Origin: an uncultured Acidobacteriota bacterium
GTDB lineage: Bacteria; Acidobacteriota; Thermoanaerobaculia; Gp7-AA8
Assembly (NCBI GenBank): GCA_963741955.1
Contig: CAVUKB010000005.1
Span: 672,001 to 736,000, forward strand
Length of the DNA stretch: 64,000 nucleotides
Reading direction: 5' to 3'
Each line of letters starts with the position of its first letter. Within the stretch, counting starts at the first letter, position 1. The notes beneath the pieces were generated by a model, which saw nothing but the letters and a program-made list of their open reading frames with translations, did no database searches and had not been told where the DNA came from. Both the position numbers and the translations under genes were made by a program. Below, in pieces: positions 1-14,779 of the stretch.

Positions 1-22
1 GCTCTTCTCCCCCGCGGCCGGG

Positions 23-898
23 GTGAAGGGATTCGATTTCGGACTGGTGATCGCCGTCGCCTCCACCAACCTCATCGCGCTCGGGATCGGCCTGCTGAGA
101 AGCTCGCGCAGACGCAAGTCGTTCGTACGCGAATTCACCCGGATCCGCGACGAGGCGGCCGACCGGATCCGGATGCGGCAGGAGCTCGAGTATGCGCGGC
201 AGATCCAGCTCAGCATGTTGCCGCGCGAGATTCCCCGTATCGACTGGATCGATCTCGCGAGCGTCTCCCTCCCCGCGACTGAAGTCGGGGGCGACTACTA
301 CGACTTCTATTTCCCCTCTCCCGACGGGATCGTTCTCACCTGCGCCGACGTGGCAGGACACGGACTCGGAAGCGGTCTGGTTCTCTCCGGCGTCCGAAGC
401 GGCCTCGCTCTCCTCTCCGATCAACTCGACCATCCGGAGGTCGTGATGGAACGGATGCACGGGATGATCCGCCGGACGACGGCGAAGCGGATGCTCGTGA
501 CCATGGCGCTTCTCGCGATCGACCGGCGGTCGCGCGTCGCCCGCTACGCCACCGCGGGGCATCCCCCCCTCCTCCTCCGTCGCTCCTCGGGATCTGTCGA
601 GGAGATCCTTCACGGATCGCTCCCGCTCGGCGCCGGGCTCGGCGACGGCTTCCCGGTTCACGAGATCGCGTGGAACCCGGGGGACCTCTTCCTGCTGCAC
701 ACGGATGGCCTCTATGAGACGCGCAATCCCGAAGGTCAGTCCTACGGTCTGGAGCGACTGATGGACGTGATGGCTGCACTCCCCACTGCCGGGTCAGCCG
801 CGGAGGCCCGAGACAGCATCCTCCGCGACGTCACCACGTTCCGCGAGAGCGGCCAGCAGGAAGACGACCTCACGATCGTCGTCGCAAAGATGGCGTGA
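23..898 (+). CDS. PP2C-family (SpoIIE/RsbU-like) Ser/Thr phosphatase, probably 5'-truncated by the window edge
   Basis: Motifs EVGGDYYD, ADVAGHG, TDGLYE, QEDDLT; N-terminal TM segment; frame is open back to position 2. Confidence 0.9.
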   Translation: MKGFDFGLVIAVASTNLIALGIGLLRSSRRRKSFVREFTRIRDEAADRIRMRQELEYARQIQLSMLPREIPRIDWIDLASVSLPATEVGGDYYDFYFPSPDGIVLTCADVAGHGLGSGLVLSGVRSGLALLSDQLDHPEVVMERMHGMIRRTTAKRMLVTMALLAIDRRSRVARYATAGHPPLLLRRSSGSVEEILHGSLPLGAGLGDGFPVHEIAWNPGDLFLLHTDGLYETRNPEGQSYGLERLMDVMAALPTAGSAAEARDSILRDVTTFRESGQQEDDLTIVVAKMA

Positions 899-932
899 GG
901 CGTGGGGCGAGCGGCGGCGTATGAACCGCCGT

Positions 933-1189
933 CATCTCCACAGGAGCGCCGGCATCCCTGCCGGCTCGTGACGAGCATCCCGTGCTCGTCACTTCCTTTC
1001 GCGCACGATTCCTCGACGCGAGAATCCACAGCACTCCCGAGGATCCCTCGCGGTCAGGCACGGAGGCCTGACCGCAGCCGGCTTGAAGCCGGCGCCCCTC
1101 GGGCAGCCCGCATCTCCACAGGAGCGCCGGCATCCCTGCCGGCTCGTGACGAGCATCCCGTGCTCGTCACCTCCTTTCGCGCACGATTC
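933..1189. repeat. REP/BIME-like element, about 1.4 units with 178-bp period; same family as the RAYT-flanking arrays
   Basis: GGAGCGCCGGCATCCCTGCCGGC at 943 and 1121; GCGGTCAGGCAC-GAGGCCTGACCGC and GCCGGCTTGAAGCCGGC hairpins shared with 22969-25677; lies between convergent genes. Confidence 0.9.
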
Positions 1190-1206
1190 TTTGTTGTCAG
1201 TCTTCT

Positions 1207-2220
1207 CTACACCACCCGACCCACCGCCGGCACGATGATCCGCAGTTCGTCCATCAGCTGCGCGAACTGATCCGGGTAGAGCGACTGGGGACCGTCGCAG
1301 AGCGCATGCTCCGGTTCGTGGTGGACTTCGATCAGCAGACCGTCCGCCCCCGCCGCGACGCTCGCGCGGGCGAGCGGCATCACCTTGTCCCGGCGCCCCG
1401 TGGCGTGGGAGGGGTCGGCGATGATCGGGAGATGGGAGAGCTTCTGCACCACCGGGATCGCCGAGATGTCGAGCGTGTTCCGCGTATACGTCTCGAACGT
1501 CCGGATGCCCCGCTCGCAGAAGATCACCTCGTAGTTGCCGCCGTTCATGATGTACTCACTCGCCAGCAGCCACTCCTGAATGGTCGCCGACATTCCGCGC
1601 TTGAGGAGTACCGGCTTGCGGATCTCGCCGAGCGCCGCCAGGAGGTTGAAGTTCTGCATGTTGCGCGCACCGACCTGAAAGATGTCGACGTACGGCATCA
1701 TCGCTTCGATCTGCCGGATCTCCATCACCTCGGAGACGGTGGCCATCCCGAACTCGTCACCGGCGGCGCGGAGGATCTTCAGCCCGTCCACCCCCATCCC
1801 CTGGAACGAATAGGGAGAGGTGCGCGGCTTGTAGGCCCCGCCGCGAAGGATCTTCGCGCCGGAGCGCGCCACCCGTGACGCCGTCTCGAAGACCTGCCTC
1901 TCGTTCTCGATGGTGCACGGCCCGGCCATGATCACCACTTCCGGCCCGCCGATCTTCACCCCGCGAACGTCGATGATCGTCTTCTCGCGCTTGAACGTTC
2001 GGCTCGCGAGTTTGTACGGTTCACTCACCCGGACTACTTCCTGGACTCCGTGGTACAACTCGAACTCCCTCTGGTCGAGCGTCTCGACCTTTCCGACGAC
2101 GCCGAGCACCGTCTGTTCGGATCCGGTGGAACGATGTACGTCGAAACCCCGCTCGGTGAGGTCTCCGACGACTTTTTCGATCTCTGCTTCCGTTGCGCTC
2201 TTTTCCATAACAATGACCAT
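1207..2220 (-). CDS. aroF: DAHP synthase (type I-beta, N-terminal ferredoxin-like regulatory domain)
   Basis: AGPC, RGGAYKPRTSPYSFQG, GARNMQNF, KRG, CERGIR, DPSH motifs; ATG at 2220. Confidence 0.95.
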   Translation of the reverse strand: MVIVMEKSATEAEIEKVVGDLTERGFDVHRSTGSEQTVLGVVGKVETLDQREFELYHGVQEVVRVSEPYKLASRTFKREKTIIDVRGVKIGGPEVVIMAGPCTIENERQVFETASRVARSGAKILRGGAYKPRTSPYSFQGMGVDGLKILRAAGDEFGMATVSEVMEIRQIEAMMPYVDIFQVGARNMQNFNLLAALGEIRKPVLLKRGMSATIQEWLLASEYIMNGGNYEVIFCERGIRTFETYTRNTLDISAIPVVQKLSHLPIIADPSHATGRRDKVMPLARASVAAGADGLLIEVHHEPEHALCDGPQSLYPDQFAQLMDELRIIVPAVGRVV

Positions 2221-2221
2221 G

Positions 2222-2530
2222 TCACTCGTCCACTTCCCTTTCGACCCGTCTCGATTCGTCGATGATCCGCTCGAAGAGTCTCCGCATGGTGATCGGCTCG
2301 AGCGGACCCTCCGACCACTTCTCGACATTTGCGAGAACTTCCTTCTCTCGTTCGGGAACGTAGATCGGCTCCTCGATTGCGCGCTTGATCTGACCGATCT
2401 CCACTGCGTACTTCGCTCGCTGATTCAGCAGCTTCACCAGCACTTCGTCCACTTTGTCGATGGCCGTACGTAGTCTGCGCAACTCGTTGTGAGCGGCGTC
2501 CGGCTCGAGATTCCGCGCGTTCCGGTTCAT
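2222..2530 (-). CDS. Chorismate mutase (AroQ/type II)
   Basis: LRTAIDKVDEVLVKLLNQRA...IGQIK...PERE pattern; ATGA overlap with trpA stop. Confidence 0.9.
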   Translation of the reverse strand: MNRNARNLEPDAAHNELRRLRTAIDKVDEVLVKLLNQRAKYAVEIGQIKRAIEEPIYVPEREKEVLANVEKWSEGPLEPITMRRLFERIIDESRRVEREVDE

Positions 2531-3317
2531 GGCGCCTCCCCGTTCAGAATCTCCCGAACCGCACGTCCCGCTCGCTCCGCGGCGCCGGCCACTTCTCCCT
2601 GGTCGATCGCGCGCACGATGGCGCTTCCGACCACCACCGCATCGCACAGGGGTGCGAGCGTCCGATACTGTTCGTGTGTCGAGACTCCGAAGCCCACCGC
2701 GAGCGGTTTCTTCAACGCGAGCCTCACCTCCCGGAGCCGCTGGACCAGACCCGGATCGAGCTCGCGCCGCGCCCCCGTCACGCCGTTCGTCGAAACGTAG
2801 TAGACGAAGCCGTCACTCATCTTCCCCACCAGAGCCATCCGTCTGTCCGTCGACGTGGGAGCGAGGAGGAACACCGAACCGATCCCGCACCCGTCGAGGT
2901 GCCGTTTCAGATCTCCTGCCGATTCCGGGGGAAGATCGGTCACCAGCACCGAATCGATGCCGGCGCCGGCTGCGTCGGCGGCGAACCGCTGGTACCCGTA
3001 GCGGTGGATCGGGTTGAGGTACGAAAAGAGGACGAGCGGAATCTCACTCCCGCTCCGAACGCGGCGCGCGACCCCGAGCACGTCCGCCATCGTCGTTCCA
3101 CGCTCCAGAGATCGTTGCGATGCGGCCTGAATCACCGGACCGTCCGCGATCGGGTCGGAGAAAGGAACCCCGAGCTCGATGCAGGACGCACCGCTCCGTT
3201 CCAGTTCGCGGACGATTCCGACCGTCGTCTCCGGATCGGGGTCGCCGCAGGTCACGTACGCCACCAGACCGCATTTCCCGTTTCTCTTCAGCTCGCGAAA
3301 CTGCTTCGTCACCCGGT

Positions 3318-3321
<4 letters not shown>
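2527..3321 (-). CDS. trpA: Tryptophan synthase alpha subunit
   Basis: [37 protein letters not shown]; GTGA overlap with trpB. Confidence 0.97.
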
Positions 3322-4513
<1,192 letters not shown>

Positions 4514-4517
<4 letters not shown>

Positions 4518-5188
4518 CGACTCTCCTTCGCCGCCGCGACGAAGCGACGGATCTTCTCTCGATCCTTGATCCCTGCTGCCGACTCCACTCCGGTCGAGAC
4601 GTCCACTCCGTCCGGCCGGGCGATCCGGATCGCTTCGCCGACATTGTCGGGGGTCAGCCCTCCAGCGACGAAGAACGGCCGGTCCGAGATCCCACGCACC
4701 AGCTCCCAATCGAACGTCACTCCGGTCCCTCCCCAAGTGGTGCGGCCGTCTCGGTCGCATCTCCTGTCGTCTCGAGAACCCTCGGATGCGACCGGGACGG
4801 TCGCACCACTTGCCGTGTCATACAGCAACCACTCCCCAACCATGCCATCCACTACCGGCACCCTCTCCCCCACCCGCACGGCGCGGATCACCGGCCGCTG
4901 GATCAACCGTGCGACGTCGTCGCTCTCCTCACCGTGCAACTGCACGAGGTCGAGGCCGACTCCGTCCGCCACTCTGTTGATCTCTTCCGCCGCCGTGTTC
5001 CGGAAGACTCCGACCACATGGACGGCCGCGCCGGTCAGAGCCGCGACGACCTCCGATGCGCACCTCTCCGTCACCATCCGTTTCGACCCGGTCGCAAACA
5101 CCATCCCGACCATGTCTGCACCCGCTTCGACCGCCGCGAGCGCGTCTTCGAGGCGGGTGATTCCGCAGATCTTCACCAGCGTATCCAT
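4514..5188 (-). CDS. trpF: Phosphoribosylanthranilate isomerase with an in-frame REP-derived insertion
   Basis: [37 protein letters not shown]. Confidence 0.95.
4734..4812. repeat. Inverted REP doublet inside trpF
   Basis: 28-bp arms 4734-4761 and 4785-4812 are reverse complements with 2 mismatches; near-identical intergenic copy at 27891-27913. Confidence 0.85.
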
Positions 5189-5994
5189 CACTCCTCCCCC
5201 GCGCCTCGATTCACGAGCCCGCGCACCGCAGCGACCCGATCGTCGTTCCGGAGAAGAGATTCTCCGACCAGAAACGCGTCGAACCCTGCATTCAGAAGAC
5301 GATCGACGTCGGCCCGAGTCCGGATCCCGCTCTCGGAGACGCGCACGACGTCCTCGGGAATCCCGCGCACCAGCCTTTCCGATGTTTCCAGATCGACGGA
5401 AAAGTCGCGAAGGTCGCGATTGTTGACTCCGATGATCTTCGCGCCGCATTCGAGTGCGACGTCGAGCTCCGTCTCGTCGTGCACCTCCACCAGCGCATCA
5501 CATCCATAGCCGGCGATGCGGGCGAGGAGCTCTCTCAGTCGAAGCGGAGTGAGAATCGCGACGATCAGCAGAAGGGCATCCGCTCCGGCCGCCACACCGA
5601 GGTCGATCTGCTGCGGTTCGACGATGAAGTCCTTCATCACCACCGGCCTTCCCGAAGCCTCCGCTGCCACGGCGATCCACGTTCTCGAGCCGCGAAAGAA
5701 CTTCGGCTCGGTGACGATGGAGATTGCCGCAGCGCCGCCTTCGCGATAACCCGTGGCGATCGCGGCGACGTCGGGATCGTGGACGATCGTTCCGGCGGAG
5801 GGAGAGGCCGCCTTGATCTCGGCGATGAGACGTGCCGCGGAGGCCTCGCGTCCGCGGGACAGCGCGTTGTGGAAGCGAAACGAGTCTCTCTCTCCCACCA
5901 CGAGCTCCGCTTCGCGGCTCAGACGCGCGAGATCGGGCGCCGGATCGAGCCCGGCCCGCGTCTCGGTGACGATTCGCGAAAGGACCGTGTTCAC
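5188..5994 (-). CDS. trpC: Indole-3-glycerol phosphate synthase
   Basis: IAEIKAASPS, KDF, LVEVH, IGVNNRDL, SESGI, LVGE. Confidence 0.96.
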   Translation of the reverse strand: MNTVLSRIVTETRAGLDPAPDLARLSREAELVVGERDSFRFHNALSRGREASAARLIAEIKAASPSAGTIVHDPDVAAIATGYREGGAAAISIVTEPKFFRGSRTWIAVAAEASGRPVVMKDFIVEPQQIDLGVAAGADALLLIVAILTPLRLRELLARIAGYGCDALVEVHDETELDVALECGAKIIGVNNRDLRDFSVDLETSERLVRGIPEDVVRVSESGIRTRADVDRLLNAGFDAFLVGESLLRNDDRVAAVRGLVNRGAGEE

Positions 5995-7019
5995 TGCGCG
6001 GCCTCCTCGAGCTCACTCGACGCGACGACGAGCGCGTCGAGACGGGATGCCGCACGACCGGAATCGATCGACTCGGCAGCGGCACGCACTCCTTCGCGAA
6101 TGCCGGAGACGAGACCGGCCACGTAAAGCGCCGCGCCTGCGTTCGCGAGAACGATCTCGCGTGCCGCCCCTTGCGCGCCGTCCAGGACTTCCCTCGCGAT
6201 GCGGGCGTTGGTCGTCGCGTCGCCGCCGCGAAGCTGCTCGATCGGATGGGGGATCACTCCCATCTCCTGTGGAGTCAGCTCGTATTCGATGATCGCCCCC
6301 CCCCGCAACTCCGCCACTCGCGTGCGGCCGGAGATGGAGATCTCGTCGAGTCCTTCCTCGCTGTGGACGACCATCGCGTGCTCCGCCCCGAGCGTACGCA
6401 GTACGGAAGCGAGGATCGGAACCAGCTCCGGAGCAAAGACACCGATCACCTGGCGGCGCGCCCGTGCGGGGTTGGTCAGCGGCCCCAGTACGTTGAAGAT
6501 CGTCCGCACGCCGAGTTCACGCCGGACCGGCGCCATCGCCGCCATCGCGGGATGGAGCTTCGGGGCGAACAGAAACGAGATCCCGGTCCGCTCGAGAACG
6601 GACGTCATCTGTTCGGCATCGAGGTTGATGTTCACTCCGAGAGCGGTGAGTACGTCCGCACTTCCGCAGGACGACGAGACCGCGCGATTTCCGTGCTTCG
6701 CGACGCGCGCTCCCGCCCCCGCCGCGACGAATGCGGCAACCGTGGAGATGTTGAACGTTCCCGCGCCGTCTCCGCCGGTCCCGCACGTGTCGATCAACCC
6801 ATCCGCCTCGACCCGGAGCGAGATCACTCTCTCGCGCATTGCGGTCGCCGCTCCCGCAATCTCGTCCGGCGTCTCTCCCTTCATCTTCAACGCCACGAGG
6901 AGTGCGCTCTTCTGGACATCCGAGACTTCTCCGTCCATCACTTCCGAGAAGACGCCCTGCATCTCGTCGAGCGAGAGGTGGCTCCCCGACATCACCTTGC
7001 GTATCGATCCTCCGATCAT
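5991..7019 (-). CDS. trpD: Anthranilate phosphoribosyltransferase
   Basis: DTCGTGGDG, NIST, KHGNR, GPLTNP, LDE. Confidence 0.97.
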   Translation of the reverse strand: MIGGSIRKVMSGSHLSLDEMQGVFSEVMDGEVSDVQKSALLVALKMKGETPDEIAGAATAMRERVISLRVEADGLIDTCGTGGDGAGTFNISTVAAFVAAGAGARVAKHGNRAVSSSCGSADVLTALGVNINLDAEQMTSVLERTGISFLFAPKLHPAMAAMAPVRRELGVRTIFNVLGPLTNPARARRQVIGVFAPELVPILASVLRTLGAEHAMVVHSEEGLDEISISGRTRVAELRGGAIIEYELTPQEMGVIPHPIEQLRGGDATTNARIAREVLDGAQGAAREIVLANAGAALYVAGLVSGIREGVRAAAESIDSGRAASRLDALVVASSELEEAAQ

Positions 7020-7591
7020 GAGAGACCTCCGATGCGGCAGAAATTCGCGATGAGACGGTCCCCCTCCGTCGTGCCGTAGGACTCGGGGTGAAACTGGATT
7101 CCGAAGATCGGACGTGTACGGTGCGACACCGCCATCACGCATCCGTCGTCGGTGGCTGCGTCGACCTCCAGGCCGGCCGGAAGGGTCGCAGCATCGGCGA
7201 CGAGGGAGTGGTAGCGCGTGGCCCGGAAGGGATTGGTGCAGCCGTCGAACAGCCGCCGCCCCTGATGACGGATCGAATCCACTTTCCCGTGCACCGGCTC
7301 CGGCGCGCGAACGATCTCCGCGCCGAACGCTTCCGCGATCGCCTGATGCCCGAGGCAGACGCCGAGGAGCGGCGTGCCGTCGAGATGGCGGACGAGATCG
7401 ACGATCTTCCCCGCATGCGACGGCGTTCCCGGCCCGGGAGAGATCACGATCGCGTCGGGATTCGATGCGAGGAGCGCGTCGATCTCGAACTCGTCGTTTC
7501 TCACCACCTCGACGCGACGCCCGGAGACGACTTCGATCTGCTGCACCAGGTTCCAGGTGAACGAGTCGTAGTTGTCGATCATGGCGATCAT
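7016..7591 (-). CDS. trpG: Anthranilate synthase component II (glutamine amidotransferase)
   Basis: IDNYDSFT, SPGPG, GVCLGHQ, RYHSL, QFHPES. Confidence 0.96.
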   Translation of the reverse strand: MIAMIDNYDSFTWNLVQQIEVVSGRRVEVVRNDEFEIDALLASNPDAIVISPGPGTPSHAGKIVDLVRHLDGTPLLGVCLGHQAIAEAFGAEIVRAPEPVHGKVDSIRHQGRRLFDGCTNPFRATRYHSLVADAATLPAGLEVDAATDDGCVMAVSHRTRPIFGIQFHPESYGTTEGDRLIANFCRIGGLS

Positions 7592-9105
7592 CGCGCCACC
7601 TCCTGGAGTGCTTTCTCGCCGCTCCGGCGTCTCTCGGCGACCGCGGCTGCGACGCCGATCGCGCGACGCAGCGCGGCCGACTTGTTCACCGTCTCGACGT
7701 GCTCCCGCTCCGGATCGGAGTCGTAGACGATTCCCGCGCCTGCCTGCACGTACGCCTTCCCTCCGCTCATCACCACGGTGCGGATCGCAATGCAGGAGTC
7801 GAGATTTCCGGAGAAGCCGATGTAGCCGACCGCGCCGGCGTACGGTCCGCGACGCACCGGTTCGAGGCCGTCGATCAGCTCCATCGCGCGGATCTTCGGC
7901 GCACCGCTGACCGTTCCGGCAGGGAACGCGGCGAGGAAGCAGTCGATCGGCGTCCGGTCGTTCCGGAGTCTCCCCCGAACGACGCTCACCAGATGCATCA
8001 CGTGGCTGTAACGCTCGATCGCGCGGAACTGCGTCACTTCGACCGAACCGCTCTCGCAGACCCGCCCGAGATCGTTCCGTCCGAGATCCACCAGCATCAG
8101 GTGCTCGGCATTTTCCTTGGCGTCGGCGAGGAGCTCGGCCGCGAGCCGCGCGTCCTCTTCCTCCGTCGCTCCGCGCGGCCGCGTGCCGGCGATCGGACGC
8201 GTCTCGGCGAGCCGACCGTCGACGCGCACCAGCATCTCCGGCGACGAGCCGACCAGCGAGAGCTCACCGGTGCGGAAGAGGAACATGTACGGAGACGGGT
8301 TGATCCCCCGCAATGCGCGATAGAGGGTCAGGTCTTCCGATTGAGGAAGATCGCACTCCCATCGCTGCGAGAGAACGATCTGGAAGACCTCGCCCGCGGC
8401 GATGGCTTCCTTTGCACGCACTACCGCCTCCTGGAACTCTCCCGCCGCATGCGTGGAGCGGACCGCGACCGGCTCGCCGACGTCGCCGGAGACGAAGAGG
8501 TCCACCCGCGCGTCGTGCAGCCTTTCCACGATCGCGTCGAGCCGCGCATTCGCCCGCTCCAGGAGCACCGCACCCGGCTCCGGCGCGTCACTGAAGATGT
8601 TCGCGACGACGTAGAGCTGCTGCCGTACTTGATCGAATGCGAGCACCTGATCGAAAAAGAGAAGCGTCGCGTCGGGAAGCCCGAGGTCGTCCGTGCGCGT
8701 GTCGGGGATGCGCTCGCTCCATCCGGCGATCCCGTAGCCGAAGAACCCCACCGCACCGCCGAAGAAAGGCGGGAGCGCCTCTTCGTTCCAGACCCGCAGC
8801 GGCACGAGCTCTTCGCGAAGCGTCGCGACCGGACTCTTCGTGTCGGGTCCGAACGAGAGCGTCTTCCGCGGCGCGACGCCGATGAACGAATACCGCCCCA
8901 TGCTCTCGCCCCGCTCCACGCTCTCCAGAAGGAACGCTTCAGGCGCGAGCGACGAGAGCGCGGCGAACGCCGCCACAGGGGTGATGGTGTCCGCCCCGAG
9001 CAGCCGCACCACCGGGATGACGTCGTACTCCCGCCGCAGCGCATCGACCCGTTCCGGGGTCAGTGCTCCGTTTTTCGGGTACACCTCTCCTCTGCTCGTT
9101 TTCAT
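7588..9105 (-). CDS. trpE: Anthranilate synthase component I
   Basis: LLES, NPSPYM, SSPE, PIAGT, EHLMLVDLGRND, GAPK, AGAGIV. Confidence 0.96.
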   Translation of the reverse strand: MKTSRGEVYPKNGALTPERVDALRREYDVIPVVRLLGADTITPVAAFAALSSLAPEAFLLESVERGESMGRYSFIGVAPRKTLSFGPDTKSPVATLREELVPLRVWNEEALPPFFGGAVGFFGYGIAGWSERIPDTRTDDLGLPDATLLFFDQVLAFDQVRQQLYVVANIFSDAPEPGAVLLERANARLDAIVERLHDARVDLFVSGDVGEPVAVRSTHAAGEFQEAVVRAKEAIAAGEVFQIVLSQRWECDLPQSEDLTLYRALRGINPSPYMFLFRTGELSLVGSSPEMLVRVDGRLAETRPIAGTRPRGATEEEDARLAAELLADAKENAEHLMLVDLGRNDLGRVCESGSVEVTQFRAIERYSHVMHLVSVVRGRLRNDRTPIDCFLAAFPAGTVSGAPKIRAMELIDGLEPVRRGPYAGAVGYIGFSGNLDSCIAIRTVVMSGGKAYVQAGAGIVYDSDPEREHVETVNKSAALRRAIGVAAAVAERRRSGEKALQEVAR

Positions 9106-9173
9106 CGATTCATCCCCAGACTTCCCCGGCCGCTAAATTCGAGGTCCGATATTCGAGATCCGAAATCTCTCCG

Positions 9174-10451
9174 TCATTCCTCCAGAAACTGCTCCACCGT
9201 CAATTCCCGTTGTTCCCCCGTCTTCAGATCCTTCACCGTGACCGTCCCCTTCGCCACTTCATCCGCTCCGACGATCACTGCAGACGTGGCCCCCGAATTC
9301 GCCGCCGCTCTCAACGCTTTCCCCACTGCCGGCTCGCCATACGGAGAGACCACCGACTTTCCTCCGCGCCGAAGCCGAGCGACGATCGAGAGCGTCGCGG
9401 CGCGATTCCCTCCCCCGCCGGTGATGGCGAAGACGTCGACCCGCTTCGATTGCGTCGCGGCGAGGCCACGATCCTTCAGCAGTTCGCCGAGCACCACGTC
9501 GCCGAAGCCGAACCCGAGGGCCGGGACGTCGATGGCGGCGAGCGAGGAGAAGAGGCGATCGTAACGGCCGCCGCCGCAGATCGCACGGAGCTCGCCCTTC
9601 CGGTCGAAGATCTCGAAGACGATTCCGGTGTAGTACGCGAGACCGCGGACGATCTTCATGTCGAACTGGATCCAGTCGCCGAAGCCGAGTGCTCCGAGTG
9701 CTTCCTCGTACTGCCGAAGATCTTCGAGCACCTGCTCGAACTCCGGATGTCCGGCGTAGCGCGAGGTGATCTCTTCGAGCGAAAGGCTGGTCAGACCGAG
9801 CGCGTTTTCCGCGGCTTCCGGCGACAATCCGATCTCACGAAGTCTCTGGACGCAGACCTCGCGCGGATCGCGCTCGACCTTGTCGATCACGTTGTACGCC
9901 GTCGGGAGGTTCTCTTCCGACACGCCGAGGTCCGTGAGAGCGGCGTGGAGGAGCCGACGGTCGGAGTAGCGCGCCACGACGTCGTCCGCGGTGAGCCCGA
10001 GGGTCCGGAGGACGTCGAGCGCTGCGGCGACGAGATCGGCGTCGGCGAGGACCGACTCCTCCCCGATGATGTCCATGTTCAGCTGGAAATGCTCGCGGAG
10101 ACGGCCGCGCTGCTGTTTCTCGTAGCGGAAGAGCTGCGGCATGGAGAACCAGCGGACCGGACGCGGCAGCCCCTTGATGCGCGCGCCGAGCATCCGTACC
10201 AGCGTCGGCGTCATCTCGGGACGGAGCGCGACCTCGCGCCCTCCCTTGTCGGTGAAGTTGAAGAGCTGGTTGACGATCTCCGGGCCGGACTTCTCGATGT
10301 AGAGCTCGAGCGCTTCGAGCGGCGGGCCGTCGTACTCCTCGAACCCGTATCGCCGCGCGACGTCCTTCCATGCTCCGAAGATCTGATTCCGCCGGGCCAT
10401 CTCTTCCGGATAGAAATCGCGGAATCCCGGCAGTGCTGCATGCTTCGCCAT
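9174..10451 (-). CDS. hisS: Histidine--tRNA ligase
   Basis: LRPEMT, FRYEKQQRGRLREH, RGLAYYTG, GGGRYD, C-terminal anticodon-binding domain; TAATG overlap with upstream aroDE. Confidence 0.95.
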   Translation of the reverse strand: MAKHAALPGFRDFYPEEMARRNQIFGAWKDVARRYGFEEYDGPPLEALELYIEKSGPEIVNQLFNFTDKGGREVALRPEMTPTLVRMLGARIKGLPRPVRWFSMPQLFRYEKQQRGRLREHFQLNMDIIGEESVLADADLVAAALDVLRTLGLTADDVVARYSDRRLLHAALTDLGVSEENLPTAYNVIDKVERDPREVCVQRLREIGLSPEAAENALGLTSLSLEEITSRYAGHPEFEQVLEDLRQYEEALGALGFGDWIQFDMKIVRGLAYYTGIVFEIFDRKGELRAICGGGRYDRLFSSLAAIDVPALGFGFGDVVLGELLKDRGLAATQSKRVDVFAITGGGGNRAATLSIVARLRRGGKSVVSPYGEPAVGKALRAAANSGATSAVIVGADEVAKGTVTVKDLKTGEQRELTVEQFLEE

Positions 10452-11962
10452 TACGACTCCTTCTTCACGGTCGCGACCGCGTCGCGCCGCAGAACTGAAG
10501 TGAACAGATCGAACTGTCGGAGAGCCTGGGCTCTCAGGAAATCCATCCCGTCGAACGTCTTCGCTCCCGCGGCGTGCGCGGCGTCGAGCGCCGGCCGCGG
10601 CGTGGTGCCGTATGCGACGTCGACGTAAAGGACGCCGCGTCTCAGAAGGGAACGTGGGATCTCGACGCCGGCGGACGCCGGAAGCGTGTTGATCACCACG
10701 TCCGCATCCGCTGCCCGCAGCACGTCGAGCGAGGCGGAGCGGATTCCGAACTCCGACGCGAGCGATGCGGCTCGCGACGCAGTCCGGTTGTACAGAGTCG
10801 CCTCGAGGCCGTGTCGCCGGATCGCGACGAGCGCCGCGCGTGCGGTGCCGCCGGCTCCGATCACCGTCACCCGCGTGCCGTGCACCATCGCGAGTGCAGT
10901 GTTGAACCCGTCGACGTCGGTGTTCATCGCGACGACGGAGATCGTGCCCTCCTCGTTGCGTTTCCGCAGGAGCGTGTTCACGGCGCGGCACGCGAGAGCG
11001 TTCTCGCCGATCGTCGCGCGCGCGCCGAGGGAGCGCGCGAACTCGAACGCCCGCTCCTTGTAGGGTGCGGTGATGCTCACCCCGTCGGGCGTGTACGGCG
11101 CGCCGGAGAGCATGGCCCGTTCGATCTCGCCGAAGTCTTCCACTTCCGCGACGGTGTACGCCGCCGCCAGCTTCCTCTGCTGGAGCCGCGGGTTGTGGAT
11201 CGACGGCGAGAGGCTGTGCGCCGCAGGAAGTCCGGTCACCGCGAAGATCGCGTCGGGGCGCGGAAGCGCGGCGAGCTCGGGACCGAAGATCGCAGCCGCG
11301 CGCTCGAGCGTCAGTTGGCCCGGCGCGGCGAGGGATGCGTCGTCCGCGGCGAGATACGTCAGCTCCGATCCGTAGAACGGCGCGAGAATCCGACTGTAGA
11401 GGCCTTTCGATCCCATCCCGAAGATGGTGGTTCCGCGCGGCGCGTCGTCGATCGCTTCGAGGAGGCGGATGTTGTCGTCCAGTGTGCGAGGAGTCGCGAC
11501 GAGCTTGATCCGTTCCGCGCCGGTGCGGCGCATCTCGGCGAGGAGCGTGTCGAGATCGGGAACGCCATCGAAGTCGTGAAACGAGAGAATGAGCCGCGGA
11601 GCGAGAGTCAATAGGCGATCACGATCCGCGTGGGAGCCGAATTCGAGATCGGCGAGATCGAAGCCCGCCTCGAGCGCCCGCTCGAGCTCCCCGATCTCAC
11701 TCCCTCCCATCCCCGCGGGTGATCTCCTCGTCGCGATGAGAAGGCGCGAGGTCGCGTTGCGAAGGGCGGCGAAATCGGGGAGGGCGCCGTTCGCGAACCG
11801 GTCGAGACGGATCTCGAATCCGTCCGCGCGGGCTTCGAGCTCGCCGATCCGTGCAATCGCCAGATCGACGGTCGGCTCGACGATCGAGACGATGCGGCGC
11901 GGCCGGACGTCGACCGGCGACGTCGCGGAAGGTCTCGAGCTCTGCGGATTGATCTCGTTCAA
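10451..11962 (-). CDS. Bifunctional type I 3-dehydroquinate dehydratase / shikimate dehydrogenase (AroD-AroE fusion); TTG start uncertain
   Basis: AroD part: EIRLD, SFHDF, IKLV, APGQ. AroE part: HSLSP, TAPYK, AVNT, NTD, GAGGTARA. Confidence 0.9.
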   Translation of the reverse strand: MNEINPQSSRPSATSPVDVRPRRIVSIVEPTVDLAIARIGELEARADGFEIRLDRFANGALPDFAALRNATSRLLIATRRSPAGMGGSEIGELERALEAGFDLADLEFGSHADRDRLLTLAPRLILSFHDFDGVPDLDTLLAEMRRTGAERIKLVATPRTLDDNIRLLEAIDDAPRGTTIFGMGSKGLYSRILAPFYGSELTYLAADDASLAAPGQLTLERAAAIFGPELAALPRPDAIFAVTGLPAAHSLSPSIHNPRLQQRKLAAAYTVAEVEDFGEIERAMLSGAPYTPDGVSITAPYKERAFEFARSLGARATIGENALACRAVNTLLRKRNEEGTISVVAMNTDVDGFNTALAMVHGTRVTVIGAGGTARAALVAIRRHGLEATLYNRTASRAASLASEFGIRSASLDVLRAADADVVINTLPASAGVEIPRSLLRRGVLYVDVAYGTTPRPALDAAHAAGAKTFDGMDFLRAQALRQFDLFTSVLRRDAVATVKKES

Positions 11963-11998
11963 ATGAAAAACCTCTTCAGGGTTTCCCGAGAAGAGGTC
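11961..11998 (-). terminator. Attenuator intrinsic terminator upstream of aroDE
   Basis: Minus strand reads ACCTCTTC-TCGGGAAACCCT-GAAGAGGT followed by TTTTCATTT. Confidence 0.85.
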
Positions 11999-12068
11999 TG
12001 AACGTCGGCTGAATTTCTGTCCGTCGCGCCTCTACCCGGGTGACCAGGGGGCGCGGATACAGCGTCCC

Positions 12069-12125
12069 CTAGTGGGTCAGGTGCCACCACCAATAACCAA
12101 AAAAGGAGACGCGGGTGCAAGTCAT
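12069..12125 (-). CDS. Leader peptide MTCTRVSFFGYWWWHLTH (Phe/Tyr/Trp/His control codons)
   Basis: 18-codon ORF with TTT TTT GGT TAT TGG TGG TGG CAC, between a promoter and a terminator that precede the aro/trp operon. Confidence 0.88.
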   Translation of the reverse strand: MTCTRVSFFGYWWWHLTH

Positions 12126-12135
12126 GAGCTGCGAA

Positions 12136-12164
12136 AGATTAGCTACGCCCGCGACGGATGTCAA
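12136..12164 (-). promoter_or_regulatory. Sigma70-type promoter of the aro-his-trp leader
   Basis: Minus strand TTGACA-17 nt-TAATCT, ending 10 nt before the leader ATG. Confidence 0.8.
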
Positions 12165-12435
12165 GCACCGCGTCGCGGACTCCGTCAGCCAACGCCGCAA
12201 TGGACCTACACGGCGCCGCCCCGCCACCAATCGACCGGAGATCTCTCCATTGCGCCATTGCCAACTCAGCACAACCCACGTCCCCGGCAGAAGCGGAGCG
12301 GGATCGCAAGACCCACCGACGCTCCGCGCACATCCACAACTCCCTCTTCATCGCGTACAACACCATCCACGCGGCAAATCCCGCCGAGCGGGATCCGCAC
12401 TCCTCGGCCGCAGCCGGGCCGCTATACTCGAACGG

Positions 12436-12915
12436 ATGAGCGACGCGACTTCCACCTCGATCACGGCTCGCCTCCGTACATGGCTCGACGCCGAAGGGGT
12501 GAGCTACCGCTTTGTCGAACATGAACCGACGCGGACGTCGGAAGAGTCCGCGGCTGCACGCGGCGAGCGGCTGGAGATCGGTGCGAAGGCGCTCCTGCTG
12601 AAGGCAGACGAGACGTTCGTTCTGATGGTCCTCAGCGCCGCGCGCAAGCTCGACTCCCACGCCGTCCGGAAGCACTTCGGTGCGAGCCGGCTCCGATTCG
12701 CGACTCGCGAAGAGCTCCTCGAGCGGACCGGCCTCCCCTCGGGTGCCGTTCCCCCATTCGGCCCTCCGATTTTCGATCTCCCCCTCTACATCGACCGCTC
12801 CGTCACCTCGAACGAGAAAGCGGCCTTCAACGCCGGAAGCCTCACCTGCTCGATCATCATGCCGACCGCCGACTATCTCCGCCTCGCCCGTGGGACGTTC
12901 GTCGACGTCACCTGA
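12436..12915 (+). CDS. YbaK/ProX-family aminoacyl-tRNA deacylase
   Basis: HEPTRTSEESA, AKALLLK, GAVPPFG, FNAG; TATACT 7 nt upstream of ATG. Confidence 0.85.
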   Translation: MSDATSTSITARLRTWLDAEGVSYRFVEHEPTRTSEESAAARGERLEIGAKALLLKADETFVLMVLSAARKLDSHAVRKHFGASRLRFATREELLERTGLPSGAVPPFGPPIFDLPLYIDRSVTSNEKAAFNAGSLTCSIIMPTADYLRLARGTFVDVT

Positions 12916-13140
12916 GGACTCGAGGTTCGAAGGTTCAAACCGCTCTCGATGGCGACAGGAGTGGCGACTCCCATCCTCTCACTTCACAGAAGAAAATGCG
13001 GCCAATGCGTAGATTCGCAGAATAATATTCTGTGGCGCCGCACTTTACGCGCATTTTGTTGCGTGTACCGAACGAGGCCATGAATCCTTCGGGACCGTCT
13101 CCGTCAGATTTCACCCGATGACCAGGAGATTCATCCGTAG

Positions 13141-13337
13141 TCGATCCTCGATCCCCGATCCTCAATCCTCAATCCTCAATCCTCAATCCTCGATCCTCGA
13201 TCCTCGATCCTCGATCCCCGATCCTCAATCCTCAATCCTCAATCCTCGATCCTCGATCCTCGATCCCCGATCCTCAATCCCCGTTCCTCGATCCTCGATC
13301 CTCAATCCTCGATCCTCGATCCCCGGTCCTCGATCCT
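13141..13337. repeat. Heptamer tandem tract (GATCCTC/AATCCTC)n
   Basis: About 28 degenerate heptamers read directly; overlaps the 3' end of the symporter gene. Confidence 0.95.
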
Positions 13338-14779
13338 CTGCGGCGCGCTCTCGACTCGACCACGACCGCCGCGCCGTATGCCAGGGCTGCGGCGATCGCT
13401 GCAACGAGGATGTATCCGAGGCCCGATGTCCGCACCGACGCCGGTTCGATCACGCCGAGCCACCCTCGCGATTCGGCGAAATACGCGGCGAATGTCGCGA
13501 CGAAGCCGGTGATCGAAGACCAGCGGACGCCCGCGGCCGACACCTCGGGGGCAAATACCGCGGCGACGGGAAACGCGACGGCGGTGGTGAGAATCCCGCC
13601 GGAGAGATAGAAGATCGACCAGAGTGACTCGGTGTTCAGGGCGAACACGCACGCTGCAGCCATGACCCCGATCGTCACCCATCGCGACGTCCGGCTCGAC
13701 GCTGCGTTCTTCTGCACCTCGAGAAGGTCGTATGCGATCGCCAGTCCCATCACGTTCGCGCAGGTGTCGATGGTGCTCATCGCGGCAGCGACCAGCCCCG
13801 CCGCCACGAGCATCTCCAGCCAGGCCGGCGCGTAGCGCGTGACCAGGGCTGCGAAGATCGCGTCTCCCTCCTGCCCGATCGACGCGGGGATCGAGCCGTT
13901 GTGCAGCGGGAAGAGAACCAGCGCGGCGATGCCGATGAAGAGGGGGAGGATTCCGACGAACGCGATCGAGTTGAGCCCTGCGATGAGCACTCCCCGTCGC
14001 GCGTCGCGATCGCTCCGCGCCGCCTGGACCCGGAGCCAGAGATCGGTCTCGAAAAGCCATCCCGGCAGATATGCGACGAACGTGAGAATGATGATCGCGA
14101 CGCCCGGGGAAAAGAGAGAGGTCCAGCCGGTTCCCGACTTCGCGGCGTGCACCGATGCCGGAGGAATCAGCGGAGCGCCCGCGGCGTGAAGCCCACGCAC
14201 TGCGAGGATGCCCATCGCCACGATGTAGAGAACGACGATGACGTACTGCATCCGATCCGTATCGACCACCGCGCGGAATCCGCCGAGCGACGAATAGATC
14301 GCCACGACGAGGCTGATGCCGACGACGGTGGTCGGGATCGCGAGACCGAGCGGCGATGCGAGGAGCCGCGCAGCAACGTAGATCTCCGCGCCACCCCACA
14401 CCAGAAAGACCACCGCCAGCGAGATCGCGACGCTGACGCGGGCTCCCCGGCCGAACCTCGCGCCGACCATCTCCGGCTGACTGAAAGAGGGAAGCGCGTG
14501 GTAACGCCGTGCGAGAAGGTAGATGCCACCGAGACTGAGCACCCACGGAATCGTGATCAGCCAGACTGCACCGAGTCCGTACCAGTAGAACAGCTGTACG
14601 GCGTAGACGCACGACCACGACACGGACATGAATCCAGCGGACATCGAGAGGCCGACCGATCCGCCGCCGAGGCTGCGCCCCGCGGTCCAGAACTCTCCCG
14701 GATCCTCGGCGCGCCGGCTGGCGCGCCATCCGAGCGCAATCGCGGCGAGCGAGTAGAGTAGGACAGCGAGCCGGACCAA
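13274..14779 (-). CDS. Sodium:solute symporter (SSS) family transporter; start uncertain (TTG 14779, frame open to 14962)
   Basis: FWTAGRSLG, RFG, YSSLGGFRAVVDTD, QAARS, AAAMSTID; many TM segments. Confidence 0.88.
   Translation of the reverse strand: MVRLAVLLYSLAAIALGWRASRRAEDPGEFWTAGRSLGGGSVGLSMSAGFMSVSWSCVYAVQLFYWYGLGAVWLITIPWVLSLGGIYLLARRYHALPSFSQPEMVGARFGRGARVSVAISLAVVFLVWGGAEIYVAARLLASPLGLAIPTTVVGISLVVAIYSSLGGFRAVVDTDRMQYVIVVLYIVAMGILAVRGLHAAGAPLIPPASVHAAKSGTGWTSLFSPGVAIIILTFVAYLPGWLFETDLWLRVQAARSDRDARRGVLIAGLNSIAFVGILPLFIGIAALVLFPLHNGSIPASIGQEGDAIFAALVTRYAPAWLEMLVAAGLVAAAMSTIDTCANVMGLAIAYDLLEVQKNAASSRTSRWVTIGVMAAACVFALNTESLWSIFYLSGGILTTAVAFPVAAVFAPEVSAAGVRWSSITGFVATFAAYFAESRGWLGVIEPASVRTSGLGYILVAAIAAALAYGAAVVVESRARRRGSRTGDRGSRIEDRGSRNGD

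Follow-up and report, generated by a model that had tools for sequence, protein, structure and literature searches.

A 64,000-nucleotide stretch of DNA from an uncultured Acidobacteriota bacterium (GCA_963741955.1, contig CAVUKB010000005.1, positions 672,001 to 736,000 of the forward strand), referred to here as the window, carries on its minus strand the 11-gene operon aroDE-hisS-trpEGDCFBA-chorismate mutase-DAHP synthase, with genes that overlap or nearly abut on one strand. The leader in front of this operon is very probably an attenuator, predicted to terminate transcription ahead of aroDE, and a predicted response to tryptophan (Trp) is held with the same high confidence. The fuller interpretation, a ribosome-mediated leader-peptide transcription attenuator with Trp as the main signal and weaker inputs from phenylalanine (Phe), tyrosine (Tyr), and histidine (His), is favored to a modest degree.

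Among the leader codons of the sequences compared, Trp is the sole invariant signal. Phe and Tyr codons track the presence of chorismate mutase in the transcription unit, not that of aroDE or DAHP synthase, and His codons go together with his genes. This comparative association makes multivalent sensing plausible. In the window leader, two Phe codons, one Tyr codon, and one His codon (at -4 from the stop) probably add weaker inputs matching chorismate mutase and hisS. A real effect of one or more further amino acids is somewhat more likely than not on the comparative association; that all four amino acids are effective is, on the same association, rather doubtful.

Leader promoter and leader peptide

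The sequence-only reading, made from the letters of the window and its open reading frames (ORFs), had proposed a promoter of the form TTGACA-17-TAATCT, and this was found where it had been placed. Read directly from the minus strand, the -35 hexamer TTGACA lies at 12159..12164 and the -10 hexamer TAATCT at 12136..12141, separated by a spacer of 17 nucleotides (nt). TTGAC is invariant across 13 aligned leaders, and the family consensus of the -10 hexamer is TAcyCT. The promoter pattern TTGACN-16..18-TAnnnT stands upstream of 34 of 38 related leaders, with 6-11 nt between its -10 hexamer and the ATG; in 28 of the 34 this gap measures 8-10 nt. A generic sigma-70 promoter scan called zero sites within 1-13500 and missed this promoter because TAATCT agrees with TATAAT at just 3 of 6 positions. 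Given the conservation among relatives, the putative promoter is taken to supersede the null result of the scan.

The leader ATG (12125-12123) begins after a gap of 10 nt from the end of TAATCT. Since this gap is so short and no Shine-Dalgarno sequence is present, the leader ORF appears to be leaderless or nearly so, and transcription probably starts at the AUG or a few bases from it. The ORF (12069..12125, minus strand) has 18 codons followed by the stop TAG (12071-12069) and reads MTCTRVSFFGYWWWHLTH; relatives have homologous short ORFs that contain WW or WWW.

The codons singled out at first sight, TTT TTT, TAT, three TGG, and two CAC, can all be read directly in the sequence. The three TGG codons (12084..12092), at -7 to -5 from the stop, are the core regulatory codons on sequence and conservation. 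The adjoining TTT TTT GGT TAT (12093..12104) provides candidate secondary regulatory codons, namely Phe at -11 and -10 (TTT TTT, 12104-12099) and Tyr at -8 (TAT, 12095-12093). A further candidate is the His codon CAC at -4 (12081..12083). The second CAC, at -1 (12072..12074), is probably not regulatory, because a ribosome paused there would cover segment 2 of the leader RNA, as it does at the stop codon. The window leader therefore has at most one well-placed His codon.

Leaders of a single specificity, either His-only or Tyr/Phe-only, share the RNA scaffold of the window leader, and their regulatory codons lie between about -2 and -10. This regulatory interval was defined from them. Codons of more than one amino acid lie inside it or at its edge in the window leader (F at -11 and -10, Y at -8, W at -7 to -5, and H at -4), and the His codon at -1 lies outside.

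RNA segments and proposed mechanism

Folding of the minus-strand transcript distinguishes six segments. Successive segments are predicted to pair in a chain of helices, 1:2, 2:3, 3:4, 4:5, and 5:6, in which neighboring helices exclude each other; the last of them is the terminator. Segment 1 (12104..12112) lies within the ORF and has segment 2 as its partner (helix P0). Segment 2 (CUAGGGGACGC, 12062..12072) includes the stop codon and can pair with segment 1 or segment 3. Segment 3 (CGCGCCCCCUGG, 12044..12055) can pair with segment 2 (P1) or with segment 4 (P2). Segment 4 (CCCGGGUAGAGGCGCG, 12025..12040) has a second possible partner in segment 5, which its part 12029-12040 can bind to form the antiterminator, P3. 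Segment 5 (11985..11998), recognized by folding and covariation, is the 5' arm of the terminator, and segment 6 (11966..11981) comprises the terminator 3' arm (11969-11981) and the U run (11966-11970).

The mutually exclusive helices and U-tailed terminator of the sequence-only reading were confirmed in their particulars. CGCGCC (12055-12050) pairs with GGCGCG (12030-12025) and closes a hairpin that encloses CCGGGTAGAGG. The enclosed sequence (12039-12029) can also pair with CCTCTTCTCGG (11996-11986) at 10 of 11 positions, with nine Watson-Crick pairs, one G-U pair, and one U-U mismatch. The terminator is a 13-pair stem (11998-11969), directly followed by a run of five U (11970-11966). The idea of competing helices was thus right, though it was incomplete, as the chain has six segments.

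When the ribosome reaches the stop codon, it would cover segment 2, so that 3:4 and 5:6 would form and transcription would end at the U run. When charged tRNA is scarce and the ribosome stalls on the regulatory codons, segment 2 would be free, 2:3 and 4:5 would form, and helix 4:5 would block the terminator and let RNA polymerase continue into aroDE. If no ribosome is present, 1:2, 3:4, and 5:6 would form, again with termination. The minimum-energy folds of the window leader are consistent with these three states. The free leader folds as P0+P2+T, T being the terminator helix (-65.5 kcal/mol), a ribosome mask at the stop codon gives P2+T, and a mask with the A site on the codon W13 gives P1+P3 with the terminator absent.

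The leader (181 nt) has a folding energy of -71.2 kcal/mol, compared with -56.8 +/- 4.5 kcal/mol for shuffled sequences (z = -3.2). The individual helices of the window leader reach -26.4 (P0, whole hairpin), -16.3 (P1), -18.6 (P2), -23.3 (P3), and -16.6 (T) kcal/mol. The 1:2 duplex has an energy of -17.5 kcal/mol against -12.7 kcal/mol for codon shuffles, 6% of which equal it; across the family this pairing is weak, with a mean z of -0.97 and 9 of 36 leaders at 5% or less.

Conservation is concentrated in blocks that coincide with the segments: a G-run joined to the stop codon (segment 2, which begins at the stop codon in nearly all leaders), GCGCCCC (segment 3), GGAAGGGGCGC (segment 4), CCUCUUCC (segment 5), and GGAAGAGG with the U run (segment 6). 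Full-leader MAFFT alignments misplaced the terminator arm (alignment A2) or segments 2 and 3 (A4), and the analyses were made instead on the model-based alignment A6 for the 5' half and on A5 for the 3' half. One locus with a simpler three-segment structure (L090) was kept out of the helix counts, and another (L089) was a false match of the model. The terminator helix is 91% paired in 25 leaders, and its covariation (0.273 vs 0.177 +/- 0.015) was reached by 0 of 500 shuffles. In the same number of leaders, 81.2% of the cells of helix 4:5 are paired, compared with 46-78% when the helix is slid, with modest covariation (24 of 500 shuffles as high). The core of helix 3:4 is 95.5% paired in 35 leaders and is nearly invariant in sequence.

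The 3' arm of the terminator contains GAAGAGG (11971-11977), 8 nt before the TTG of aroDE and the sole Shine-Dalgarno-like element there. From this spacing, GAAGAGG is likely to be the ribosome-binding site of aroDE. The antiterminated fold frees it, and therefore aroDE translation is probably controlled too. Control might even be mainly translational, with hairpin 5:6 hiding the ribosome-binding site and the leader ORF governing the initiation of translation. The U-rich spacer that alone separates GAAGAGG from the TTG would suit such control, as would several genomes of genus g9 (L066, L092, and L097), in which the hairpin is kept, the U run is degraded, and an aroDE ATG follows the G-rich arm by 9-10 nt. 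In g9 the loss of the U run may represent a shift from transcriptional to purely translational control. For the window leader, a mainly translational mode is very unlikely in view of its five-U run right behind a 13-pair stem. Most relatives have 4-9 U at this point, and about half of them carry a separate downstream Shine-Dalgarno sequence, e.g., g7, G010, and G026. The first gene starts 7-14 nt past the terminator 3' arm in roughly half of the relatives; these spacings are qualitative only, as automated choice often set the start at a TTG inside the U run. The transcriptional and translational modes are compatible with each other.

Distribution among relatives

AroDE homologues were found in 61 related genomes with an identity of only 40-50%. 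A short WW/WWW ORF before aroDE, accompanied by matching downstream RNA motifs, is present at 14 of 30 loci, including that of the window. A covariance model, R1, was built on the part of the leader that runs from the Trp codons through segment 4. It matches 37 of 124 genomes of family f1, distributed over 19 of 40 genera, and in an even sample of the class its matches are confined to this family and to the one genome of the sister family f3. R1 had 0 matches in 114 genomes from 15 other families of the class. On this distribution, the element is a lineage-specific family of predicted attenuators. Rfam searches of the whole window at gathering scores returned only tRNA and no leader family (Trp, His, Phe, Thr, Leu, or other), and a search of 11900-12250 with E values up to 10 gave only chance matches to unrelated eukaryotic families. 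Distant named relatives of AroDE share 27-34% identity and belong mostly to metagenome-assembled genomes of Acidobacteriota. The locus itself is present in one DNA sequencing run, from a soil metagenome; no RNA run containing it is listed.

The recurrence of the arrangement in 37 of 124 family genomes indicates more than chance. A chance ORF beside an ordinary terminator or hairpin, having no regulatory role, could be invoked because the generic promoter scan is empty in the region and terminator-like sites are just about twice as frequent as in shuffled sequence (10 vs 5.7). This explanation is strongly disfavored and is the least likely of those considered here. The unit of promoter, ORF, helices, and terminator has been kept while AroDE diverged to 40-50% identity, and the terminator covaries. 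Recent transfer as the cause of this conservation is contradicted by the divergence of the flanking genes. In addition, the upstream gene, which encodes a YbaK/ProX-type aminoacyl-tRNA editing domain protein (12436-12915, plus strand; Pfam tRNA_edit, E = 5e-28), is divergent and lies 270 nt upstream of the attenuator promoter. The leader hairpin therefore terminates no upstream gene.

Many genomes of the family have an aroDE without a leader (L005, L007, L010, L011, L014, L016, L017, L025, L026, and L028). At these loci aroDE lies behind a conserved gene, the product of which has YYDPRN...GVGLPGHYIVKVQFELNEVYVDPF-type motifs. Palindromes composed of tandem units of 7-8 nt (e.g., TTTTCAA or GAGTCCT/CAGGACT repeats) flank or interrupt the operons in many relatives. 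They occur upstream of the leader in L067, at 3090-3215 in L069, past the terminator in L074 and L076, in the upstream regions of L011 and L018, and, in genus g7, between hisS and trpE.

Leader codons and gene content

Tandem Trp codons, WW or WWW, are present in all 32 trp-type leaders tabulated, and Trp is therefore regarded as the core signal. Among the stop-aligned, non-redundant trp-type leaders, W is found at -5 in 28 of 29 and at -6 in 26 of 29 (positional and codon-usage counts omit the near-duplicates L073, L078, L084, and L086). At -4, an H, W, F, or Y codon occurs in 20 of 29 leaders; His was seen there only in the leaders of hisS-containing units. Gly often precedes WW.

The sequence-only reading had suggested that His codons should co-occur with hisS, and the comparison bears this out. 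Between -2 and -10, at least one His codon is present in 9 of 11 leaders of units with hisS only (mean 1.27) and in all three leaders of units with his biosynthesis genes, which have 1, 4, and 5. Leaders of units without a his gene have a mean of 0.07, and 1 of 15 has any. One unit with his biosynthesis genes, in genome G036, comprises some 20 genes in the same orientation over about 20 kb, aroDE-hisZGDCBH(A/F)-hisS-hisIE-trpEGDCFBA-DAHP synthase (L061, G036:C7:1500-17500; L114). It stands behind one leader, MTNALASRHHHGWWHHLS, with five His and two Trp codons.

Phe and Tyr codons, counted over the same positions, follow chorismate mutase. Five units in which chorismate mutase and DAHP synthase come after trpA without a leader of their own have 2, 2, 3, 3, and 3 such codons, the link spanning a contig break in two of these five (G001 and G005). 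Two units with DAHP synthase only have 0 and 0, six with neither gene have 0-2, and nine with chorismate mutase behind its own leader have 0-1. At least two Phe/Tyr codons are thus found in 5 of 5 units including chorismate mutase vs 1 of 17 others. In these counts, the proposal that control codons mirror operon content held for W with trp genes, H with hisS, and F/Y with chorismate mutase; its assignment of F/Y to aroDE and DAHP synthase did not.

The same scaffold also carries leaders of other types. In the window's own genome, a pure His leader, MTNGLVIRRHHSLHHHPML (G000:C10:246321-246440; L080, about 150-360), stands before hisZ-hisG-hisD-hisC...hisA/F-hisIE, and genus g7 likewise has a pure His leader before its his operon. 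Tyr/Phe leaders such as MTSRARYYAYYYYFT and MNRTFAPNWFYYGYYS stand before separate chorismate mutase-DAHP synthase units in 9 genomes (loci L100-L102, L105-L109, and L112), about 400-500 nt upstream of DAHP synthase and often directly after trpA. In G002, G106, and G007, the Tyr/Phe leader comes directly after trpB or trpA and forms an internal attenuator within the gene string. A search for further scaffold copies in the window's genome gave four pattern matches, two being the trp and his attenuators and two lying in coding sequence without a terminator.

The preference for H, W, F, or Y at -4 after WW, with Gly often in front, could also be selected at the level of the peptide. The nascent chain might arrest the ribosome, or the peptide might act in trans, as peTrpL of Sinorhizobium reportedly does; leader peptides acting in this way are reported to exist (PMC7298713). 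Beyond WW, the peptides are unconserved in sequence and length, the same RNA scaffold bears very different peptides (His-only and Tyr-only), and their variation follows the downstream genes. A function of the peptide itself is consequently most improbable, and a role of the codons is preferred.

Weighing the proposed additional inputs

The alternative that deserves most attention is an attenuator responding to Trp only. On this view, an ancestral composite leader would have left the Phe, Tyr, and His codons behind as relics, or they would stem from neutral drift or be by-products of RNA pairing, with CAC pairing with the GUG of the UGG run. Such an attenuator is a real possibility, although not the preferred one, and it is favored by the invariance of the Trp codons alone. 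Several groups of observations that weigh against additional inputs or against parts of the helix scheme are gathered here, and some of them favor it too.

The first group consists of exceptions in the codon counts. G001 and G005 have hisS and no His codon in the regulatory interval, and G038 has hisD, hisA/F, and hisS yet only one His codon. In genus g7 the interval contains 2-3 His codons (at most 5 in total) despite a separate his operon with its own His leader, and G111 has 2 Tyr codons without chorismate mutase. In addition, the interval -2 to -10 was picked after the single-specificity leaders had been seen.

The second concerns phylogeny. In a FastTree tree of AroDE and TrpE, rooted on the f3 genome and with supports not examined, the short-leader group lacking hisS is one derived clade. 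The 15 leaders without hisS, bar G022, all fall in it, and the contrast is therefore close to a single event.

The third comes from folding. When the 5' part behind the ribosome was left free, the terminator formed at every A-site position from codon 4 on. With the 5' part removed, only W13 and W14 among codons 4-19 flipped the fold to the antiterminated state. F8, F9, Y11, and H18 never did, H15 did so at an 11-nt footprint only, and codons 2-3 flipped it too. Of 19 other leaders, 15 kept the terminator in the minimum-energy fold at all ribosome positions, and 4 appeared antiterminated throughout owing to failed detection of the terminator, so that the 20-leader mask scan is informative for the window leader only. 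In truncated transcripts, the terminator 5' arm was often paired upstream in both states. Equilibrium folding is therefore ambiguous and, as a model, cannot settle which codons would be effective. Furthermore, a CAC after UGG codons can pair with GUG (GGUG:CACC), and some His codons could be structural rather than regulatory.

The fourth is the uneven covariation of the helices, which had been suggested as a check. It was obtained for the terminator and, to a modest extent, for 4:5. Helix 2:3, examined in two fixed registers, has zero covariation, and that of 3:4 is uninformative because the sequence is almost invariant. In 2:3 the core of G-run and C-run is paired in 87.7% of cells and the extensions in only 37-43%. 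Helix 2:3 is thus retained only as a G-run:C-run pairing with lineage-specific extensions.

Finally, single codons give little sensitivity. In the Corynebacterium glutamicum leader aroR (Phe-Tyr-Phe), which precedes the DAHP synthase gene aroF (Neshat et al. 2014), excerpts of PMC11802643 report a response to Phe and none to Tyr. By analogy, the lone Tyr codon of aroR is a caution for single codons in the window leader.

Several features speak against a Trp-only attenuator. The match between codon counts and gene content recurs at several distinct places in the tree, with concordant contrasts between G005 and g7, between G010 and G009/G024, between G013/G001 and the clade lacking hisS, between G036 or G026 and their neighbors, and between the window and G036. 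G036 and G026, both rich in His codons, are not sisters. One further contrast rests on G022, where the leader lies directly before trpE, the unit has no hisS, and the regulatory interval has zero His codons. The presence of His is retained while its position turns over, at -2, -3, -4, -8, or -9 by lineage. His codons have a general, not computed, background of about 2% per residue, and leaders controlling his biosynthesis genes have four or five of them. At least two F/Y codons occur in all five chorismate mutase units. The codon usage of the leaders offers a weaker sign. U-ending codons are enriched (TTT 43% vs 16%, TAT 39% vs 24%, and CAT 54% vs 31%), and neutral GC-rich sequence already gives about a third.

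An attenuator with Trp as the core signal and additional weaker inputs is therefore preferred. A wider proposal is more tentative and is put forward as a possibility. One leaderless leader peptide would integrate the levels of charged Trp, Phe, Tyr, and His tRNAs, on a scaffold that would serve as a reusable module across the order. Its codons would be rewritten when his, trp, and chorismate mutase-DAHP synthase units are fused or split through duplication and merging of attenuators, giving WW only, HHHGWWHH, FFGYWWWH, pure His, or pure Tyr/Phe. With the 3' arm serving as the ribosome-binding site, transcription and translation would switch together.

The operon behind the leader and its neighborhood

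The gene content given by the sequence-only reading was correct by Pfam. All genes are on the minus strand. The first is an aroD-aroE fusion (10451..11962), which joins a type I dehydroquinase (DHquinase_I) to a shikimate dehydrogenase and has the TTG at 11962 as its sole possible start. It is followed by hisS (9174..10451), whose start overlaps the aroDE stop, and by trpE (7588-9105), trpG (7016-7591), trpD (5991-7019), trpC (5188-5994), trpF (4514-5191), trpB (3318-4520), and trpA (2527-3330). An AroQ-type chorismate mutase of 102 amino acids (2222..2530; CM_2, E = 5e-24) has an ATG that overlaps the trpA stop. The last gene encodes a type I-beta DAHP synthase with an N-terminal ferredoxin-like domain (1207..2220). 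A second DAHP synthase paralogue is present elsewhere in the genome (G000:C5:19600-20604) and is 47% identical to the operon copy; both types also occur in most relatives.

hisS encodes the single full-length histidyl-tRNA synthetase in a genome that is 99.1% complete, the sole second match being hisZ, 29% identical. No T-box before hisS was among the Rfam gathering-score matches in the window. With its start overlapping the aroDE stop and no T-box or other Rfam match, hisS appears to have no regulator of its own. The location of this essential gene behind a Trp attenuator requires basal read-through or an internal promoter, and it provides a rationale for a His input. The TRAP protein (Pfam TrpBP, PF02081) had 0 matches in the same genome, with Bacillus subtilis as a positive control.

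Just past the DAHP synthase gene, an 84-nt element occurs in two copies (928-1011 and 1106-1189) that are 96% identical and 178 nt apart. Each copy contains a perfect 11-bp palindromic hairpin, GTGACGAGCAT CCC GTGCTCGTCAC. In sequence the repeats look like repetitive extragenic palindromic (REP) elements or a terminator at the end of the operon.

Comparison with known systems

Leader-peptide attenuation is a textbook mechanism that, to our knowledge, has seldom been studied outside Proteobacteria and Actinobacteria. The present leader would place it in a soil lineage of Acidobacteriota, on an RNA scaffold of its own and with a sensor ORF that is probably leaderless. A single scaffold is re-used for Trp, His, and Tyr/Phe control. 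The codon content of the leaders appears to evolve in step with the fusion and fission of operons, providing a natural series from single to four specificities.

The enterobacterial hisL attenuator has six segments, A-F, in which A:B, C:D, and E:F alternate with B:C and D:E. The present helix chain has the same parity, and a pure His leader on its scaffold stands before a his operon. It differs from hisL in its unrelated sequence, its Trp core signal, and its one or two His codons.

Attenuators predicted in Acidobacteria previously had no assigned function, according to excerpts of PMC2965389. The literature search found no description of a Trp/His/Phe/Tyr composite leader or of this scaffold, subscription comparative work such as Vitreschak et al. 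(2004) being outside its reach.

The alternative between a ribosome at the stop codon and a stalled ribosome is that of enterobacterial trpL, familiar from textbooks and from PMC1183508. In both the window leader and trpL, a short ORF ends close behind tandem Trp codons, antiterminator and terminator helices are alternatives to each other, and a U-tailed terminator precedes trpE-type genes. Unlike trpL, the window leader has no Rfam match, six segments instead of four, a probably leaderless ORF, and extra Phe, Tyr, and His codons. The unit behind it begins with aroDE and also takes in hisS, chorismate mutase, and DAHP synthase.

The mixed aromatic codons of aroR, as excerpted in PMC11802643, control DAHP synthase and make it a direct analogue of the Tyr/Phe leaders of the relatives. 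It differs from the present leader in having no Trp or His codons, and it comes from a different phylum. Aromatic supraoperons are also described in excerpts of PMC1173090, with aro-trp-hisC-tyrA-aroE in B. subtilis and aro-trp in Desulfovibrio. As far as these describe them, they too unite aro genes of the common pathway with the trp operon and a his-related gene in one transcription unit. The Bacillus supraoperon is controlled by TRAP and has another gene set and order, whereas in the window the mixed specificity seems to reside in one cis-acting leader peptide. Histidyl-tRNA synthetase-family genes stand under His-codon leaders in bacilli as well, where, according to excerpts of PMC2965389, hisZ and a hisS paralogue are preceded by leader peptides of the His type. 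Those leaders are dedicated and lie directly before the gene; in the window, hisS is the second gene behind a Trp-centered leader. In mycobacteria, leaderless poly-Cys short ORFs reportedly act as attenuators (bioRxiv 10.1101/834739). They resemble the present ORF, judged leaderless from its promoter spacing, as amino-acid sensors at the 5' end of a polycistronic mRNA. The amino acid, the phylum, and the downstream RNA mechanism differ from those described there.

Multivalent attenuators are known from ilvGMEDA, ilvBN, and thr. As in these leaders, one peptide in the present system mixes codons of amino acids made through the operon. The ilv and thr leaders mix the end products of one branched pathway; here aromatic amino acids are combined with histidine, through an aminoacyl-tRNA synthetase gene or a whole his operon. 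Should the extra codons be functional, the leader would be one of few attenuators to link two unrelated pathways with an essential aminoacyl-tRNA synthetase, and it would offer a simple, programmable design for a multi-input sensor.

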